From assembly GCA_964348195.1 (NCBI GenBank), contig CAYGBX010000007.1:4802-68801 (forward strand): a stretch of 64,000 bases of DNA. The letters are read 5' to 3'. The translations under genes were made by a program, and so were the position numbers. Numbering within the stretch: position 1 is the first letter of the stretch; the number at the start of each line of letters is the position of its first letter. Shown piece by piece: positions 1,103 through 62,237 of this stretch. Source of the DNA: an uncultured Anaerolineales bacterium (GTDB taxonomy: Bacteria > Chloroflexota > Anaerolineae > UBA7937 > JACPPX01). The notes beneath the pieces were generated by a model. It was not told where the DNA came from. It saw nothing but the letters and a program-made list of their open reading frames with translations, and searched no databases.

Positions 1103-1837
1103 ATGGCGATTACAGAAGATCCTGAAAACTACGAGACCCGCGTCTTGTCCGACCTGGTGGATTTCGCGGGAAAGCGGGTGCTGGAGATCGGCTGCGGAAC
1201 GGGTCGCCTGACCTGGCGCTACGCGGACAAGGCTGCGCACGTCATTGGAATCGATCCGATCGCCGAAGACATCGCGACGGCGAAGGAGAACCGACCGGAT
1301 CGTTTGCGCGACAGGGTCGAGTTCTTGGAAGCCACCATCGAGGGTTACGAACTGCCTGCGGGCGCGCCGAAGTTCGATGTAGCCCTGTTCGCGTGGTCTC
1401 TCTGATGAATCGACCCTGAGGGCATGGTTCATGCCCTGAAGAAAGCGCGTCGCCTGCTGTCATCCGGCGGCATCCTCGTCAACGTTCACGATATCGACGA
1501 TCCGGCGCGGGTGGAGGTTCATGACGGCGCCCGTGTCAGCGTGGCTGGCCGGGTAGTGGACCGATCAGATTTCGACGACGAACGTCAGGCGCTCGCGGCA
1601 GTGGCTCAGGTAGTGGAAGATGGCTTGTTCGTTATGGAAGAAGAGCGCCTCTTCGACCACAACCTTCACGCCGAATCGCTCGACGTCTTGCGCGAGTACA
1701 TCGCTGAGGAATGGGAAAACACGATCCTGCCAGGGGAGACTGCACAGAAGGCTGAGGAGCTCATGAGCCGCGCGGCCGACGACGCGGAGGTGATTGTTCG
1801 CTTCTCCGCTTGGATGGCACGGCTGAGGTCTGCCTGA
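1103..1837 (+). CDS. Class I SAM-dependent methyltransferase with tandem in-frame UGA-UGA (1403-1408), a candidate Sec-Sec selenoprotein (paralogue 1)
   Basis: ORFs 1043..1405 and 1424..1837 share one frame. Joined, they give a complete Rossmann MTase: motif I VLEIGCGTG, then IGID, then FDVALFAWSL-[TGA][TGA]-IDPEGMVHALKKARRLLSSGG. ATG 1103 follows the RBS GAGGAGG. It lies 9 nt after the tspO stop, suggesting an operon. Confidence 0.75.
1419..1437 (+). promoter_or_regulatory. SECIS-like hairpin downstream of the UGA-UGA in methyltransferase 1
   Basis: AGGGCAUG-GUU-CAUGCCCU forms an 8-bp stem with G/U in the apical loop. It starts 10 nt after the second UGA. The nucleotide sequence is identical to that in paralogue 2. 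Confidence 0.5.
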
Positions 1838-3379: not shown

Positions 3380-3832
3380 GTGGGAGTGAAGACGAAGGCA
3401 CCCAATCCCTCCTACCTCAATCTGTGCATACCGCTTTCGATCGCCATGCATCTTCTCTTCCCAATCCAGATGCTGATCCGTTCGCCGCTGCGATACGTGG
3501 GCATCCGGCTCATTCTCTTGGGGTTGGCGCTCAACCTCGCGGCGTCGGCCCGATTGCGCGACAGCCAAACGCCTGTCGATTTCCATAAGTCCCCCGTTCG
3601 CTTGGTGACGGATGGTCCTTTTCAGATGACCAGGAATCCGATCTATCTCGGAGGTGTGGCCGTTCTCCTTGGCATCGCCATGTTCCTTGGCTCGCTCGTG
3701 ACGCTTCTGTTTCCGGTCTTCGTGCTCGTGGTACTGGATCGGATCTACGTTCCGATCGAAGAGGGTGAGATGGAGGAGCGGTTTGGACACGACTATCTTG
3801 AATACAAGCAAGCCGTGAGAAGATGGATGTGA
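3380..3832 (+). CDS. Isoprenylcysteine carboxyl / phospholipid methyltransferase-family membrane protein
   Basis: The motif GPFQMTRNPIYLGGVAVLLG...EEGEMEERFGHDYLEYKQ matches the ICMT/PEMT C-terminal signature. The protein has multiple TM helices. The start is uncertain (GTG 3380 or ATG 3446). Confidence 0.75.
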   Translation: MGVKTKAPNPSYLNLCIPLSIAMHLLFPIQMLIRSPLRYVGIRLILLGLALNLAASARLRDSQTPVDFHKSPVRLVTDGPFQMTRNPIYLGGVAVLLGIAMFLGSLVTLLFPVFVLVVLDRIYVPIEEGEMEERFGHDYLEYKQAVRRWM

Positions 3833-4386: not shown

Positions 4387-4566
4387 GAAGTGAAGGATCA
4401 CTGGACGCAGGCGGCCGTGGACCCGCTCCTTGGAGCGCCAAGGCGACTGTTCCTGGGACAGGCAGAGGCGGCCTAGGCAGGCCCATCACACGTTGACTTG
4501 CGAAGCCGCTGGTGCTGCAATCATCGGGCAGCTCACTTGTCCTACCAAGCAGCTAGGAGGCACCGA

Positions 4567-5328
4567 ATGGCGATCAGAGAGGACCCTGAGAACAACGAAA
4601 CCCGCGCCTTGTTTGACCTGGCTGACTTCAGCGGAAAGGACGTGCTGGAGATCGGCTGTGGCGACGGCCGCATGACATGGCGGTTCGCCAACTGGGCGGA
4701 CCATGTCACGGCCATCGATCCCTATGAGGAAGGAATCAACCGGGCCAGAGAAGACCTCCCGGACGAGCTAGAGGGCCGGGTCGAGTTTCACCATATTGGC
4801 TTCGAAGACTTTGCCGCTGTCAGCCAGCCCTCAACCTTCGATATCGCCATCCTTTCCTGGTCTCTTTGATGAATGGAACACGAGGGCATGGTTCATGCCC
4901 TGGAGGAGATTCATCGCCTGCTCAGGCCCGGCGGATACCTGGTCGAGATTCATCCGTTCCCCGAAGGGTCGCTCCTCAAGGTCCTTAGAGATGGCGAGAT
5001 CCTCTTCGCCGAGCCCAGGCGGCTCTCTGAGGATGAGGACGTGCTGCACGCTGAAGAGGCTGTCGCGGAGGTAGTTGGGCGGCACCTGTTTGTCATCGAA
5101 GACACGGGAGAGTTCGACTTCTTCACCTACGCCTCATCGGTGCCTGAGCTCCGCGAGTTCAAGGAGGAGGCCAGCGCCTACGACGATTCCCCGAAGGACG
5201 AGGCGTTGGAGGCCCGGGAGGAAGAGCTGTACCGCCAGGCTGAGGAGATCATGCAGGCAACCGGGGAGGGAGCGGAAGTCGCCACTCATTCCAGGGCCTG
5301 GATCGGGCGACTCCGGCCGGTGAGGTGA
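4567..5328 (+). CDS. Class I SAM-dependent methyltransferase with tandem in-frame UGA-UGA (4867-4872), a candidate Sec-Sec selenoprotein (paralogue 2)
   Basis: ORFs 4498..4869 and 4873..5328 share one frame. Joined: VLEIGCGDG ... FDIAILSWSL-[TGA][TGA]-MEHEGMVHALEEIHRLLRPGG. ATG 4567 is preceded by AGGAGG. The protein is collinear with the 1103..1837 gene along its full length. Confidence 0.75.
4883..4901 (+). promoter_or_regulatory. SECIS-like hairpin downstream of the UGA-UGA in methyltransferase 2
   Basis: The same AGGGCAUG-GUU-CAUGCCCU hairpin starts 10 nt after the second UGA. The 21 nt GAGGGCATGGTTCATGCCCTG are identical in both paralogues, including all wobble positions. Confidence 0.5.
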
Positions 5329-9199: not shown

Positions 9200-9412
9200 G
9201 CTGGTTGCTTCGCCGTCTGCTGAACACCATCTGGGCACCTCCCTCAAAGACATGGCCAGGCACCTGCAGCTCGGACCATACCCGCGGCGGTCAAGCTTCA
9301 GCTCGAGATCCCAGAACACCTGGAAATGGTGGATGGCAGGCTCGACGAAATCGAGGACCTCCTCGCCCCCACTGCTCAGGAGGATTTCTGGCGGGATGGT
9401 GAAGGGGCGAGG

Positions 9413-9949
9413 ATGCTGACGGAGGAGATCGAGGCTCCGGACTTCACACTCCCTCAGGTGGATGGGCCACCCATCACGCTCAGTGAGACGCTTGGGAAGG
9501 GCCACCACGTCTATCTGATCTTCCTTCGCTATCTTGGCTGAATACATTGACTAGAGCATGTGGTGCAGGTGTACCACTCCAGAGATCAATTTCAAGCCCG
9601 ACGGGTCCGCGTTCTTGTCATTGGATTCGAGAAGGAGGAACGGGCGCGGGACTGGATCCGCCGAGCGCAGGTGTCTTTCCCCCTCCTGATTGATCTCGAT
9701 CGCGTCGTGTATCGAGCCTACGGAATCGAGAGATCGATATTTCGGTCCTGGCATCCTCGCAATCTCTGGTTCTACTTCAAGCGATTCCTCAGGGGGCAAG
9801 GAATCTCAATGTTCAGGGCTGACCCAGCCCAGCTCGGAGGGGACGTTCTCATTGATCGACAGGGAAGGATTCGGTGGAAATACGAAAGCAGAGATGCGAC
9901 CGATAGACCTTCAGTCCAGGAGCTCCTGGCAGCAACTGACAATCTCTAG
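9413..9949 (+). CDS. Peroxiredoxin-like (AhpC/TSA, SelL-like) thioredoxin-fold protein with redox motif encoded as UGA-I-H-UGA (UxxU)
   Basis: ORFs 9326..9541 and 9560..9949 share one frame. Joined: APDFTLPQVDGPPITLSETLGKGHHVYLIFLRYLG-[TGA]-IH-[TGA]-LEHVVQVYHSRDQFQARRVRVLVIGF...FPLLIDLDRVVYRAYGI...QLGGDVLIDRQGRIRWKY. The UGA codons (9539-9541, 9548-9550) occupy exactly the CxxC positions. The start could be 9326 or 9413. Confidence 0.8.
9560..9577 (+). promoter_or_regulatory. SECIS-like hairpin downstream of the UxxU codons
   Basis: GUGGUGC-AGGU-GUACCAC forms a 7-bp stem (one G.U pair) with an AGGU apical loop resembling the E. coli fdhF SECIS loop. It starts 9 nt after the second UGA. Confidence 0.5.
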
Positions 9950-16431: not shown

Positions 16432-17294
16432 GGCCCTGGCGCGAGAACTTGTCTGAGCGTCTCAGCGATCCCACACCGTATCCGGAGGTCAACGCTCTCT
16501 TGGAGGAGCTTCTTTCGCGCGTCCGACAGGTCCTGAGGGATCGCTTCTTGGGAATGTATCTTTATGGCTCACTGGCCAGAGGCGATTTCGATCCCGATCG
16601 GAGTGACATCGACTTCATCGTTGTGACGGACGATGACTTGCCCGATGAGGCCATGTCCTCTCTGGGGGCGATGCACTCCGCGCTTGTGAAGAGCGGCATC
16701 AAGGGGGCCGAGAGACTGGAAGGCGCCTACATGCCCCTCTCCGCGCTCCGCCGGTATGACCCTGACCACGGCGCTGTCCCTACCATCAACGAGGGGCGAT
16801 TCTACCTGGCACGACAGAGGAGCGACTGGGTCATCCAGCGGCACGATCTGAGAGAGCAAGGCGTGGTTGTGGCAGGGCCTCCCCTGAAAACCCGAATCGA
16901 CCCTGTCAAGCCAAGGGATCTTCGGCGAGCGGTAGTAGGGTTTCTGCAAGAATGGTGGGAGCCACTGCTAGATGATCCCGCCCGGCTTGAATCTGCCAGG
17001 TACAGATCCTACGCGGTGCTGACCATGTGTCGGGCCCTCTACACGCTGGAGCATGGTAGGCTCGTCTCCAAGATGGAGGCTGCCACATGGGCTTTGGATG
17101 CGCTGGACGAGATGTGGAGAGGGCCGATCGAAGCGGCGCTGTTCCGGCGCTATCAGGCCCGGTCGCTGAGGCTCGATAGGACGAAGGACTTCATCAGATT
17201 CACCATTGAGCGGAGCAGGCAGGGAGCAGGACCGACAAGGGCAGAGACGGGGAGTGGTGAAAGACCACGGTATGATCGGGAGGAACCGGTCTGA
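16428..17294 (+). CDS. Nucleotidyltransferase-domain protein, aminoglycoside adenylyltransferase (AadA/DUF4111)-like
   Basis: The Pol-beta NTase motif YLYGSLARGDFDPDRSDIDFIVV is followed by a helical C-terminal domain of AadA-like size. Confidence 0.72.
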   Translation: MRPWRENLSERLSDPTPYPEVNALLEELLSRVRQVLRDRFLGMYLYGSLARGDFDPDRSDIDFIVVTDDDLPDEAMSSLGAMHSALVKSGIKGAERLEGAYMPLSALRRYDPDHGAVPTINEGRFYLARQRSDWVIQRHDLREQGVVVAGPPLKTRIDPVKPRDLRRAVVGFLQEWWEPLLDDPARLESARYRSYAVLTMCRALYTLEHGRLVSKMEAATWALDALDEMWRGPIEAALFRRYQARSLRLDRTKDFIRFTIERSRQGAGPTRAETGSGERPRYDREEPV

Positions 17295-17296
17295 CT

Positions 17297-17902
17297 TTGC
17301 AGGCGATTGAACTGTGGATAGGTCGATTGGGCGCAATCGCCGCTTCGATCGTTCTCGCACTTGCGTTGATCCGGCTCCTCGGGTCTGGTGAGGAGCCAAC
17401 CGGCCGGACCGTGGGTCGCGTCACAGTAGTTCTTCGGCGACCTACGCTTTTCCTAGCCGCTGGCCTGTTCATTTTGGTTGGAGCTGTGTTGTGGCGTCCG
17501 ATTCCGCTGGTCCTGGCCGCGCCTGCTCGGCTCGCCGCGCTGGCTTCTGGGTCCGTTCTTCTCTTCGGGGGTCTGGCCCTCTATCTCTGGGGCTTGCGGG
17601 CCCTGGGTTCGATGTTCGGTTCCGCCAGTGGACTCGCGGCGAGGCTCTATGAGGACCATCGGCTCGTCGTCACCGGGCCGTACGCCTGGATCCGCCATCC
17701 GATGTATCTGGGTGTCATGGCGGCCTTCTTCGGCGGGCTTCTGCTATACCGAACCTGGGCGCTGGCGCTGTACGCACCGCTCATGTTGGGGCTTGTGATC
17801 CGGGCCCGAAGGGAAGAGGAGGCGCTGGTAGCGGAGTTTGGAGACGAGTGGCAGCGATACAGGCGCAGGGTGCCGGCCTGGATTCCTCGGTTGAGGAGGT
17901 GA
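17297..17902 (+). CDS. Isoprenylcysteine carboxyl methyltransferase-family membrane protein
   Basis: LVVTGPYAWIRHPMYLG...RREEEALVAEFGDEWQRYRRRVP is the ICMT/PEMT signature. This is a second member alongside 3380..3832. Confidence 0.75.
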   Translation: MQAIELWIGRLGAIAASIVLALALIRLLGSGEEPTGRTVGRVTVVLRRPTLFLAAGLFILVGAVLWRPIPLVLAAPARLAALASGSVLLFGGLALYLWGLRALGSMFGSASGLAARLYEDHRLVVTGPYAWIRHPMYLGVMAAFFGGLLLYRTWALALYAPLMLGLVIRARREEEALVAEFGDEWQRYRRRVPAWIPRLRR

Positions 17903-20473: not shown

Positions 20474-21064
20474 ATGGGTACGAATCTAGAGGGAGACCGG
20501 GGCGCAGAAGACAGCCTAGAATTGGCCACTCTCGGGGGTGGATGCTTCTGGTGTCTGGAGCCCATCTATGATGAGCTCGAGGGCGTTGCCAAGGTCGAGG
20601 TAGGCTACTCCGGTGGGGACGTAGCCGATCCCAGCTACGAGCACGTGTGCACCGGCACGACGGGCCACGCTGAGGTGGTGCAGATCACCTTTGACCCCAC
20701 GGCGGTCTCTTTCGAAGAGATCCTCGAAGTGTTCTTCTCGATTCACGACCCGACGACGCCTGACAGGCAGGGGGCCGATGTGGGCCCTCAGTACCGGTCG
20801 GCCATCTTCTACCACAGCGATGAACAGAAGGAGACCGCAGAGCGGGTGATCCGCGAATTGGATGCGGAGGGGATCTGGGGGGCTCCGATCGTCACGGAGG
20901 TGTCGCCCCTGGAGTCCTACTATCGCGCCGAGGAGTACCATCAGAAGTACTTCGCGAAGAACCCCCAGGCCGCCTATTGTCAGTTGGTCATTGCGCCCAA
21001 GATCGCCAAGTTCCGTCAGAAGAGCGGCGCCAGGCTCAAGACCTCTGCGGTTCCGGCTCGATAG
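20474..21064 (+). CDS. msrA: Peptide-methionine (S)-S-oxide reductase
   Basis: The GGGCFWC active-site motif and high similarity to MsrA are evident throughout. The active site is the Cys form, not Sec. Confidence 0.92.
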   Translation: MGTNLEGDRGAEDSLELATLGGGCFWCLEPIYDELEGVAKVEVGYSGGDVADPSYEHVCTGTTGHAEVVQITFDPTAVSFEEILEVFFSIHDPTTPDRQGADVGPQYRSAIFYHSDEQKETAERVIRELDAEGIWGAPIVTEVSPLESYYRAEEYHQKYFAKNPQAAYCQLVIAPKIAKFRQKSGARLKTSAVPAR

Positions 21065-61157: not shown

Positions 61158-62237
61158 CTAGATCAGGAGCTTGCCAGCCTCGAGGGCAGGTCGTCCATCC
61201 AAGAGCAGGGTGGGCTCAGGGATCAGGAAGTCGTTGTGGAGGTCGGTCTGGACCTTTCCCCCGAACCAGCTGTTGTCGCCGATGGCGATGTGGACCGTCC
61301 CGAGCGTCTTCTCCGCCTCGACGATGCTATGGCGCGGCTGGGCGTTGGGGTTCGTCCCTATGCCCAGCTCGGCCAGATTGCGCCGTGCCTCGTCGACCGG
61401 GGCCTGAGGCTCGAACCCGAGGCGCTTCCGTAGGATCCGGCCCCGCTCGCCCCCTCCCTCCGCTCGGACCACCAGGCCCGCTTCGAAGTCGAGGGCCAGG
61501 TCCTCTGTCTGCAAGATGGTGGGCTGCCACGTGTGCGGCGCAACCAGCGTTCCCTCGCCGGTGCCCTCGACAGGCGCTATGAAGGCTTCGCCACCCGGCA
61601 GGTTGCTGAAGGCACCGGGCTCCGTGAGGAATCCTGTGTCTGAGTAGGCTTCTCGGCCTGCAAGGCTGAATTGGAGCTCTGTCCCAGTGGGCGAGGTCAG
61701 CACTACGTCCCGCGCCTCGGTGAGCGCCTGGGCGACGGCGCGGGACCGGGCGGCGACCTCATCGTAGTCCACTGCCATGGCCCCGTCGAGGGAAAACCCG
61801 GCTACCGGGAAGTTGTTCATGCTGGCGAAGCGCACACCTTTCTCGGTGGCGCGCTTTCGTGCCTCGGTGTGGGAGAGGCTGGCGTCGTTGGGGAGCGCCA
61901 AGACGACATCGTGCTCAAGGATGGCGCGGGCCACGTCCTCTGGAGGCTCCTGCGCGCTCTGATGCGGACCCGGGTAGGCGATGAAGGTCACACGGCTTGA
62001 GGGAAACTGATCCTGGGCGATCTCGGCCATCAGCTTGGCCAGCGCTGAGGTCTCTGCGAATCGCCGCACCATGGCGAGGGGCCACTCGTGCCATGCCTGC
62101 GCGGCGGGTGGGTTGGTGCAGATGAAGAGGCTCTCTCCCTCGCGGAACCCCATGTTGATCCGCAGGAGGTTCTGAACCTGCTCCTCGATCTGGTCTCGCT
62201 CAGGCCATCCTATGGTCGTTTGCTCCGTCGGAATCAT
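61158..62237 (-). CDS. M29-family aminopeptidase (aminopeptidase T/AmpS-like)
   Basis: The C-terminal LGIGTNPNA...EAEKTLGTVHIAIGDN...DLHNDFLI pattern is typical of COG2309 aminopeptidases. Confidence 0.7.
   Translation of the reverse strand: MIPTEQTTIGWPERDQIEEQVQNLLRINMGFREGESLFICTNPPAAQAWHEWPLAMVRRFAETSALAKLMAEIAQDQFPSSRVTFIAYPGPHQSAQEPPEDVARAILEHDVVLALPNDASLSHTEARKRATEKGVRFASMNNFPVAGFSLDGAMAVDYDEVAARSRAVAQALTEARDVVLTSPTGTELQFSLAGREAYSDTGFLTEPGAFSNLPGGEAFIAPVEGTGEGTLVAPHTWQPTILQTEDLALDFEAGLVVRAEGGGERGRILRKRLGFEPQAPVDEARRNLAELGIGTNPNAQPRHSIVEAEKTLGTVHIAIGDNSWFGGKVQTDLHNDFLIPEPTLLLDGRPALEAGKLLI

Follow-up and report, generated by a model that had tools for sequence, protein, structure and literature searches.

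The recoding of UGA as selenocysteine (Sec) under the direction of a SECIS hairpin is a well-known system, and several of its described forms resemble the locus reported here. The E. coli fdhF-type SECIS lies inside the open reading frame and combines an in-frame UGA with a stem-loop carrying G(U) in its small apical loop. The minimal fdhF element has a spacing of 11 nt. The bSECIS consensus has a loop of 3–9 nt, a stem of 4–16 bp and a G in the first two loop positions, with a UGA-to-loop distance of 16–37 nt and a minimum free energy of −7.5 kcal/mol or lower (PMC13188914). UxxU selenoproteins (SelL-related, Prx-like UxxU and FmdB-type UxxU) apparently use one hairpin for two Sec codons and hold their selenols near enough for a diselenide, in a thioredoxin-fold CxxC-type motif whose UGAs lie 9 nt apart. 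Sec also occurs in class I SAM methyltransferase domains (ArsM UxxG, MduS, MTase/UXPK-star, ArsM/DUF2284 and ArsM/AhpD). Their motifs are UxxG or CxxU (CxxU in MduS), and in the ArsM types a Cys or Sec close to the SAM site holds the metalloid. A vicinal chalcogen pair occurs as a functional CU motif in SaoL, SaoC, HgcA and MbdU of organometallic or metal-binding systems, which have unrelated folds and contexts, and none of these is listed with adjacent Sec (Table 1, PMC13188914). Among the 119 prokaryotic selenoprotein families and subfamilies catalogued in 2026, none has an adjacent-Sec motif; the methyltransferase entries carry UxxG or CxxU, and MGMT is entered without a listed motif (PMC13188914).

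The window analysed here, a DNA stretch of 64 kb, contains two paralogous methyltransferase genes, each interrupted by two adjacent in-frame UGA codons with the same small hairpin shortly downstream of the pair. Compared with the fdhF-type element, two adjacent UGAs share one hairpin in 11- and 14-nt registers, the 11 nt of the minimal fdhF element being the distance from the second UGA. The stem is a perfect 7-bp helix with a triloop, without a bulged U and without an Rfam match. Two UGAs per hairpin apparently occur in UxxU proteins too; the new element is their adjacency, and the vicinal UU pair sits in a Rossmann-fold methyltransferase. Unlike the ArsM and MduS types, which have their Sec motifs at other positions, the family is about 250 aa long and has its own C-terminal domain. 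A vicinal pair is shared with the CU-motif proteins, and some members of the family themselves read CU or UC. No such methyltransferase is mentioned in the deep-Sep and BSepDB main texts, NCBIfam 20.0 (Haft group curation) has no model for the family, and the literature that we searched, with incomplete coverage, holds nothing relevant on adjacent or tandem Sec. Within that coverage, we rate this selenoprotein family as new and its UU motif as a new variant. Both paralogues are very likely (probability about 0.9) intact selenoprotein genes with functional SECIS-directed recoding; Sec insertion itself is inferred, as we have no selenium data.

The coding features of the two genes are as follows.

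4567..5328, + strand: methyltransferase paralogue 2, a class I SAM-dependent methyltransferase gene of 253 codons plus stop
4555..4560, + strand: Shine-Dalgarno-like AGGAGG, 6 nt 5' of ATG 4567, read from the sequence
4867..4872, + strand: tandem UGA of paralogue 2, in-frame and adjacent, codons 101-102, aligned with the Cys-Cys of homologues
5326-5328, + strand: TGA, genuine terminal stop of paralogue 2
1103..1837, + strand: methyltransferase paralogue 1, from ATG 1103, 244 codons plus stop
1403..1408, + strand: adjacent UGA UGA of paralogue 1, likewise codons 101-102
1835-1837, + strand: TGA, terminal stop of paralogue 1

The TGA TGA at 4867-4872 is the single break in the paralogue 2 frame between ATG 4567 and the stop at 5326-5328. 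The two genes lie 3.4 kb apart and are quite diverged, with 45% identity in protein and 57% in DNA. The window has just two exact copies of the 21-mer GAGGGCATGGTTCATGCCCTG (1418-1438 and 4882-4902), none of 100 shuffles of its sequence has any, and the 17-mer TGGTCTCTYTGATGAAT around the stops also has two exact occurrences. The peak of nucleotide identity between the paralogues covers codons ~98-112 only and divergence starts at once on either side, which excludes a long gene-conversion tract. Within this segment the same amino acid is written with the same codon in 9/10 cases, versus 47/94 outside it (Fisher p=0.019). The codon after TGATGA is ATG in paralogue 2 and ATC in paralogue 1; paralogue 2 has a further ATG 5 codons on. 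The predicted peptide across the recoded site reads ...SWSL-U-U-MEHEGMVHALEEIHR. An earlier note, made from the letters of the window, had claimed a paralogue with UGA-UGA at the homologous position and an identical 21-nt hairpin in otherwise diverged genes. Both claims hold. Its start for the paralogue 2 frame, a TTG at 4498, does not, the true start being ATG 4567. It had also named gene conversion over a large tract as a possible source of the local identity; we looked for this and found only a short island.

The interrupted site is not peculiar to the window. A search of 5.8 billion proteins returns about 20 full-length homologues, which read SWSL-CC-M at the interrupted site and are 47-59% identical to paralogue 2, and more than 95 fragments of 146-165 aa, whose coverage of the query is limited to its C-terminal 57-60%. 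When 1.84 billion cluster representatives are searched exhaustively with a profile and the best 150 are tallied, the same picture emerges from both sides of the site: 32 are N-fragments stopping exactly there (...SWSL or ...WSLC) and 66 are C-fragments beginning just past it (profile position 103 or 108). Only 19 span the site (CC 15, AC 2, YC 1 and CR 1). One extra spanning representative, with "WW" at the site, derives from a TGA TGA sequence that had been translated under genetic code 4. The DNA itself was read for 80 species-level genomes, which together with the two window copies give 82 gene copies, with TGA read as U:

UU (UGA-UGA): 55 of 82 copies
CU (Cys-UGA): 16 of 82 copies
UC (UGA-Cys): 7 of 82 copies
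CC (Cys-Cys): 3 of 82 copies
UGA-UAA: 1 of 82 copies

UGA is thus present at the site in 79 of the 82 copies, 77 of these outside the window and in several phyla. Over this census and the profile search, UGA forms outnumber Cys forms by about 3-4 to 1. The copies span at least seven phyla, with hosts in Chloroflexota (many orders), Actinomycetota, Acidobacteriota, Gemmatimonadales, Eisenbacteria, Dormiibacterota and Heimdallarchaeota; the Heimdallarchaeota MAG has a CC form. The one copy with TGA TAA (locus L030) is possibly a pseudogene or a sequencing error. The UU/CU/UC/CC pattern is shown as an interchange of UGA and Cys; that it is the classic Sec/Cys interchange includes the inference that Sec is inserted. 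Two selenoprotein criteria, UGA-bearing orthologues in other organisms and UGA aligned with a conserved Cys, are both met. The two positions are not equivalent. Position 102 is nearly always Sec or Cys, while position 101 also tolerates Ala or Tyr, suggesting that the essential nucleophile or ligand is probably 102, with 101 as a helper.

The hairpin begins shortly past the second UGA and is placed as follows.

4883..4901, + strand: bSECIS-type hairpin of paralogue 2, 8-bp stem 4883-4890/4894-4901, loop GUU 4891-4893
4884-4890/4894-4900, + strand: conserved 7-bp core of the paralogue 2 hairpin, with covariation in 69 sequences
1419..1437, + strand: bSECIS-type hairpin of paralogue 1, with the same sequence as the paralogue 2 hairpin

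The register of the core is fixed in all 79 UGA copies, 11 nt past the second codon and 14 nt past the first, with the consensus GGGCAUG/CAUGCCC around a 3-nt loop. All seven core pairs form in 74/79 UGA copies, and 5-6 pairs form in the other five. The loop is GUC in 39 copies, GUU in 25, GUG in 13, and GGU and GGG in 1 each, so its first base is always G. Pairing holds in 96.4% of the cells of alignment A2 (69 sequences, ungapped). Compensatory changes occur at 5/8 pairs (G-C to A-U, G-C to C-G, A-U to G-C and U-A to C-G), and the observed covariation values are matched by none of 500 column shuffles. When the 3' partner is slid by 1-3 columns as a control, pairing falls to 19-59%. RNAalifold on the 69 sequences recovers solely this helix. 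The folding energy of the hairpin is −12.7 kcal/mol (z = −3.8). Every criterion of the bSECIS model is met, with a loop of 3 nt, a stem of 7-8 bp and UGA-to-loop distances of 18 and 21 nt.

The Cys forms behave differently. The three CC copies of the genome collection retain only 1-3 of 7 pairs, and in these copies E-G-M-V-H-A-L is replaced by D-D/R-M-V-P-A-L. The further selenoprotein criterion of an RNA covariation that is absent from Cys forms is therefore met with one exception. A close CC homologue, L082 (TGC TGT), has the hairpin intact and keeps GMVHAL, so the hairpin alone is no proof of ongoing recoding. Because older CC lineages have lost theirs, we read the L082 hairpin as the relic of a recent conversion from Sec to Cys.

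The hairpin also constrains the choice of codons in the stem.

His codon of the stem: CAT in 73/73; elsewhere in the same genes CAT 182 : CAC 244 (43% CAT), Fisher p=1.4e-24
Ala codon of the stem: GCC in 68/79, the remainder co-varying; elsewhere GCC 39%
Gly codon of the stem: GGC in 66/69; elsewhere GGC 49%

The lone freely variable third position is that of the Val codon, which lies in the loop. Upstream of the UGAs, the synonymous sites of the W-S-L codons are free to vary across the family (alignment A2). RNA-level constraint is thus limited to the hairpin (core 4884-4900) and excludes the 17-mer around the UGAs. In copy 2 an additional lower helix, GAUGAAU (4868-4874) with AUUCAUC (4909-4915), can be drawn; it is absent from the 69-sequence RNAalifold consensus and we consider it incidental. 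At the gathering threshold, Rfam finds only tRNA-Val in the whole window, and no curated Rfam family covers the hairpin. A permissive Rfam search near the hairpin gives an RsmV match, which we judge to be chance.

These results settle most of what the earlier note had claimed about the RNA. A SECIS-like hairpin at 4883-4901 is upheld by covariation and by all the bSECIS criteria. Selection at synonymous positions is upheld in part: these positions are frozen in the hairpin stem, but the claim fails for the upstream TGGTCTCT block, where the W-S-L synonymous sites vary across the family. The view that the UGA pair is conserved rather than decaying holds, with 79 UGA copies alternating with Cys. 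The note had proposed a search for compensatory stem changes in other genomes, and these are present. It had also named observations that would refute it. Sense codons without Cys in orthologues were one of them, and this check came out in favor of the claim, the homologues having Cys or UGA. Loss of the hairpin was another; every UGA-bearing homologue retains it, and the diverged Cys-Cys forms have lost it.

The protein is a class I SAM-dependent methyltransferase by its Pfam score, its motif I and its Rossmann-type fold. Pfam Methyltransf_25 gives 62 bits for paralogue 2 and 59 bits for paralogue 1 against a cut-off of 27, Methyltransf_11 is also well over its Pfam gathering score in both paralogues, and SAM motif I (GxGxG) is present as VLEIGCGDG. 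AlphaFold models the CC homologue P0001 with a pLDDT of 94.6 and alternating beta and alpha elements. In this model residues 101-102 lie in a short turn that links strand beta-4 (91-97) to helix 105-118. In Foldseek searches against the PDB all matches are class I methyltransferases (TleD, RebM and others) with TM scores of ~0.5-0.6; no specific functional analogue is found there, generic small-molecule methyltransferases only, and for this reason the C-terminal half is taken as family-specific. RebM and TleD (PDB entries 3BUS and 5GM1) are the best matches in both sequence and structure. However, they share only ~19-21% identity with the family, have another C-terminal half, and carry His where the family has Sec or Cys. 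In the PDB profile alignment the pair falls on H-H of RebM (ESLHHM) and C-H of TleD (ESLCHM). The RebM histidines are reportedly proposed to be catalytic. The motif-IV nucleophilic Cys of DNA and RNA C5-methyltransferases likewise follows beta-4. The alignment to RebM and TleD and the turn after beta-4 together place the pair at the active site, on the side of the methyl acceptor.

For the methyltransferase paralogues, every NCBIfam model stays under its cut-off. The best match, the corrinoid protein-associated methyltransferase CpaM (NF043040), scores 70-75 bits against 180 and extends over the N-terminal Rossmann half only, so membership is not met. Neither is it met for the methyltransferase-domain double selenoprotein MduS (NF045649; 33.2, 19.7 and 29.8 bits against a curated 380) or for the ArsM-type selenoprotein models NF008823, NF041536, NF041537 and NF047649 (16-33 bits against 263-575). 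Among these, the plain ArsM model NF008823 gives ~22 bits against 263, and the MTase/UXPK-star, MduS and ArsM-fusion models give 16-33 bits against cut-offs of 380-575. An all-against-all ORF comparison of 80 loci plus the window shows no conserved gene neighbor, and the substrate is therefore not indicated by gene context. The neighbors of the methyltransferase genes in the window, TspO, PFK, PEMT/ICMT-like and GNAT, are unrelated.

UGA remains an ordinary stop in this DNA. It is the commonest true stop in the window (22/41 confident ORFs), and among the ORFs that end with it are the two methyltransferase genes and the immediately upstream TspO gene, which makes general read-through unlikely. 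As UGA still terminates, we do not regard a changed genetic code as the explanation for the in-frame UGAs. A window-wide scan for in-frame UGAs that are flanked by coding sequence on either side and have a G-loop hairpin returns the four methyltransferase UGAs and those at 9539, 9548 and 61641. The UGA at 61641 was rejected, as its translation looks non-coding. The other two belong to a second gene.

9326..9949, + strand: SelL-related redox protein gene, U-I-H-U motif, UGA at 9539-9541 and 9548-9550
GUGGUGC-AGGU-GUACCAC: hairpin of the SelL-related gene, beginning 9 nt past the second UGA

This gene lies 4 kb downstream of the methyltransferase and reads ...LRYLG-U-IH-U-LEHV.... It meets membership of NCBIfam NF040769 (SelL-related redox protein) with 147.9 bits against 120 and has its motif at the CxxC position, and the score identifies 9326-9949 as an independent UxxU selenoprotein gene. 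It provides, at 9539-9550, an example of the UxxU type within the window. Since it has one hairpin for two UGAs, this arrangement is already normal in the organism. No tRNA-Sec, selA, selB or selD is found in the window (ARAGORN and Rfam; Pfam for the first half, by eye for the second). That the host uses Sec is inferred, with the SelL-related gene as indirect support.

Several other explanations need to be weighed. The genes could be decaying pseudogenes with the TGA pair as a nonsense lesion, and public annotations do give the halves as separate fragments or hypothetical proteins; one homologue moreover has TGA TAA. However, UGA stands at these codons in 79 copies from multiple phyla and alternates only with Cys, the frames are intact with coding-type composition on both sides of the site, and a co-varying hairpin lies downstream, all of which leaves this explanation almost no room. 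A split gene, in which translation terminates at the tandem stop and restarts at the next AUG to give two subunits, draws support from the ATG immediately after TGATGA in copy 2 and the second ATG 5 codons on, and from gene callers, which put the start of C-fragments at profile position 103 or 108. Copy 1, however, carries ATC after the stops, so that stop and restart cannot be generalized, and across the family the codon is AUG, AUU, AUC, AUA, GUN or UUC. There is also no Shine-Dalgarno sequence for a restart, and in the CC, CU and UC forms the frame is wholly or half open at the same codons. Restart predicts neither Cys interchange nor a G-loop hairpin at constant 11/14-nt spacing, and we consider it practically excluded.

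Identity between the paralogues might instead reflect recent gene conversion or protein-level constraint on G-M-V-H-A-L, without any RNA element. The genes are just 3.4 kb apart, and one CC homologue retains both GMVHAL and the hairpin. Against this, the identity island is ~15 codons long with flanks that diverge immediately, the same nucleotides are kept in other phyla with compensatory stem changes, codon choice is frozen (the His codon without exception), and the diverged CC forms have D-D-M-V-P-A-L and no pairing; this reading too is as good as ruled out. The rival closest to our own accepts SECIS/SelB recoding with another residue inserted, either Cys via a non-canonical tRNA-Cys(UCA) or Trp or Cys by near-cognate read-through. 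SelB-dependent Cys insertion at UGA is reported from some bacteria, and the sequence cannot tell inserted Sec from Cys. However, a change to TGC or TGT would take a single mutation and require no hairpin, yet UGA forms prevail over Cys forms by ~3-4 to 1; the window holds a SelL-related UxxU gene, of a family defined by Sec; and with UGA as the main stop codon, general read-through is unlikely. We regard insertion of another residue as very improbable, with somewhat less finality than for the other three.

Sec insertion at both UGAs thus remains the preferred reading, and the following steps can be proposed for it. The interchange of UGA and Cys, the covariation of the hairpin, its spacing, the fold and the alignment of the site are shown; the dependence on SelB, the actual insertion of Sec and the chemical role of the pair are inferred. 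SelB.GTP.Sec-tRNA(Sec) would dock on the G-first apical loop of the hairpin within the coding sequence and deliver Sec to the UGA in the A-site. The ribosome would reach UGA-1 with the hairpin 14 nt ahead, and a first SelB complex would decode it. One translocation would then bring UGA-2 into place with the same hairpin, still folded and outside the mRNA channel, 11 nt ahead, and a second SelB complex would have to load ahead of termination by RF2. Each register also functions without the other, as the natural Cys-UGA and UGA-Cys variants show. Two SelB events in succession against RF2 are expected to be inefficient by E. coli standards, which is a counterpoint to the Sec-Sec reading. The hairpin would in turn impose the peptide G-M-V-H-A-L on the protein.

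The predicted product is a class I SAM-dependent methyltransferase of ~250 aa with a family-specific C-terminal beta-rich domain, in which the Sec-Sec (or Cys-Cys) dipeptide would occupy the turn just past strand beta-4, on the methyl-acceptor side of the active site. Without biochemical data we infer that residue 102 is likely the essential nucleophile or ligand, with 101 as a resolving or chelating partner. By analogy with ArsM the pair may bind a soft metal(loid) or chalcogen, and by analogy with motif-IV Cys methyltransferases it may act as a covalent nucleophile. A methyl relay and a diselenide redox switch are also conceivable. Our confidence in any single catalytic role is low. A bolder reading, towards which we lean by a small margin only, is that this is the first natural family with genetically encoded Sec-Sec, that a single bSECIS serves decoding at 14 and then 11 nt, that a vicinal diselenol replaces the catalytic His-His of the RebM type, and that selenium is the default state of the enzyme. 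The last part rests on the excess of Sec forms over Cys forms. If this reading is true, the vicinal diselenol would be a selenium-based nucleophile, a soft metal(loid) chelator or a methyl-relay intermediate.

The locus exposes a systematic annotation error in public data, with the gene called as fragments of 100 aa and ~150 aa or as "WW" under code 4. It provides a natural test of the tolerance of SelB and SECIS to spacing and to back-to-back recoding, which bears on the engineering of proteins with multiple Sec. With a vicinal diselenol beside the methyl group of SAM, the enzyme hints at methyltransferase chemistry that has yet to be explored, for example the methylation of metalloids or chalcogens, or covalent catalysis. 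The UU motif would be an addition to the 119-family 2026 catalogue, and a widespread, mostly Sec-containing enzyme family of Chloroflexota, Actinomycetota, Acidobacteriota and other phyla would join the prokaryotic selenoproteome.

In copy 2 of the methyltransferase gene, the segment GAUGAAU (4868-4874), which overlaps both UGA codons, is able to pair with AUUCAUC (4909-4915), a stretch that is part of the codons of E-I-H-R. This pairing would form a lower helix beneath the SECIS hairpin. It is a feature of copy 2 only, conserved neither in copy 1 nor in the family consensus.

Other genes of the window considered here are as follows.

519-1094, + strand: TspO/MBR gene
3380-3832, + strand: small PEMT/ICMT-like membrane methyltransferase gene, between copies 1 and 2
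9326-9949, + strand: SelL-related redox protein gene (NCBIfam NF040769, cut-off 120 bits, score 147.9 bits)
17276-17902, + strand: second small PEMT/ICMT-like membrane methyltransferase gene
20474-21064: MsrA

The SelL-related gene is the third selenoprotein gene in the window. Its UGA codons at 9539-9541 and 9548-9550 make the CxxC position read U-I-H-U, and the hairpin GUGGUGC-AGGU-GUACCAC begins 9 nt 3' of the second UGA. An in-frame TGA at 61641 (+ strand) also passed the UGA scan and has a G-loop hairpin downstream. It was rejected as a Sec site and is probably a false positive, because its translation resembles off-frame high-GC sequence.

Only 8 nt separate the end of the TspO/MBR gene from methyltransferase copy 1, so the two may belong to one operon. 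Genes for methyl transfer and redox functions (TspO/MBR, the two PEMT/ICMT-like genes and MsrA) are abundant in the region; no link to the selenoproteins is shown. In another homologue (L082:6001-6774, JGI 3300003465), an FMO-like flavin monooxygenase gene ends within the methyltransferase start, with an overlap of 4 nt, and genes for an alpha/beta hydrolase and a SnoaL-like protein lie upstream. These neighbors may hint at a role in a small-molecule pathway.

Two family paralogues are also found in MAG MFD02840.bin.1.241 (loci L010 and L041, both CU) and in MAG MFD01299.bin.1.229 (L049 and L064, both UU). Duplication is therefore common in the family, the window being one case. In some database proteins the site appears as 'SWSL-WW-I', which is TGA TGA read with genetic code 4. 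This is confirmed for P0075 (L081:60-812, Logan SRR28252204) and assumed for P0140. In other records the N- and C-halves are deposited separately, as 'proteins' of 100/101 and ~146-153 aa.

In the homologue from a Chloroflexia MAG (L030:3283-3369, CAWBNG010000007.1) the site is TGA TAA, with hairpin and downstream frame intact. The gene may have been inactivated very recently, or the TAA may be an error of long-read sequencing. The L082 homologue is a Cys-Cys form (TGC TGT), yet it keeps a perfect SECIS-like hairpin. A Cys-Cys member without the hairpin (YSLCCF; L071:3001-3387) is found in an Asgard archaeon, Heimdallarchaeota MAG JBHLSH010000010.1. The CC/UU dipeptide is therefore a hallmark of this methyltransferase family in both domains.
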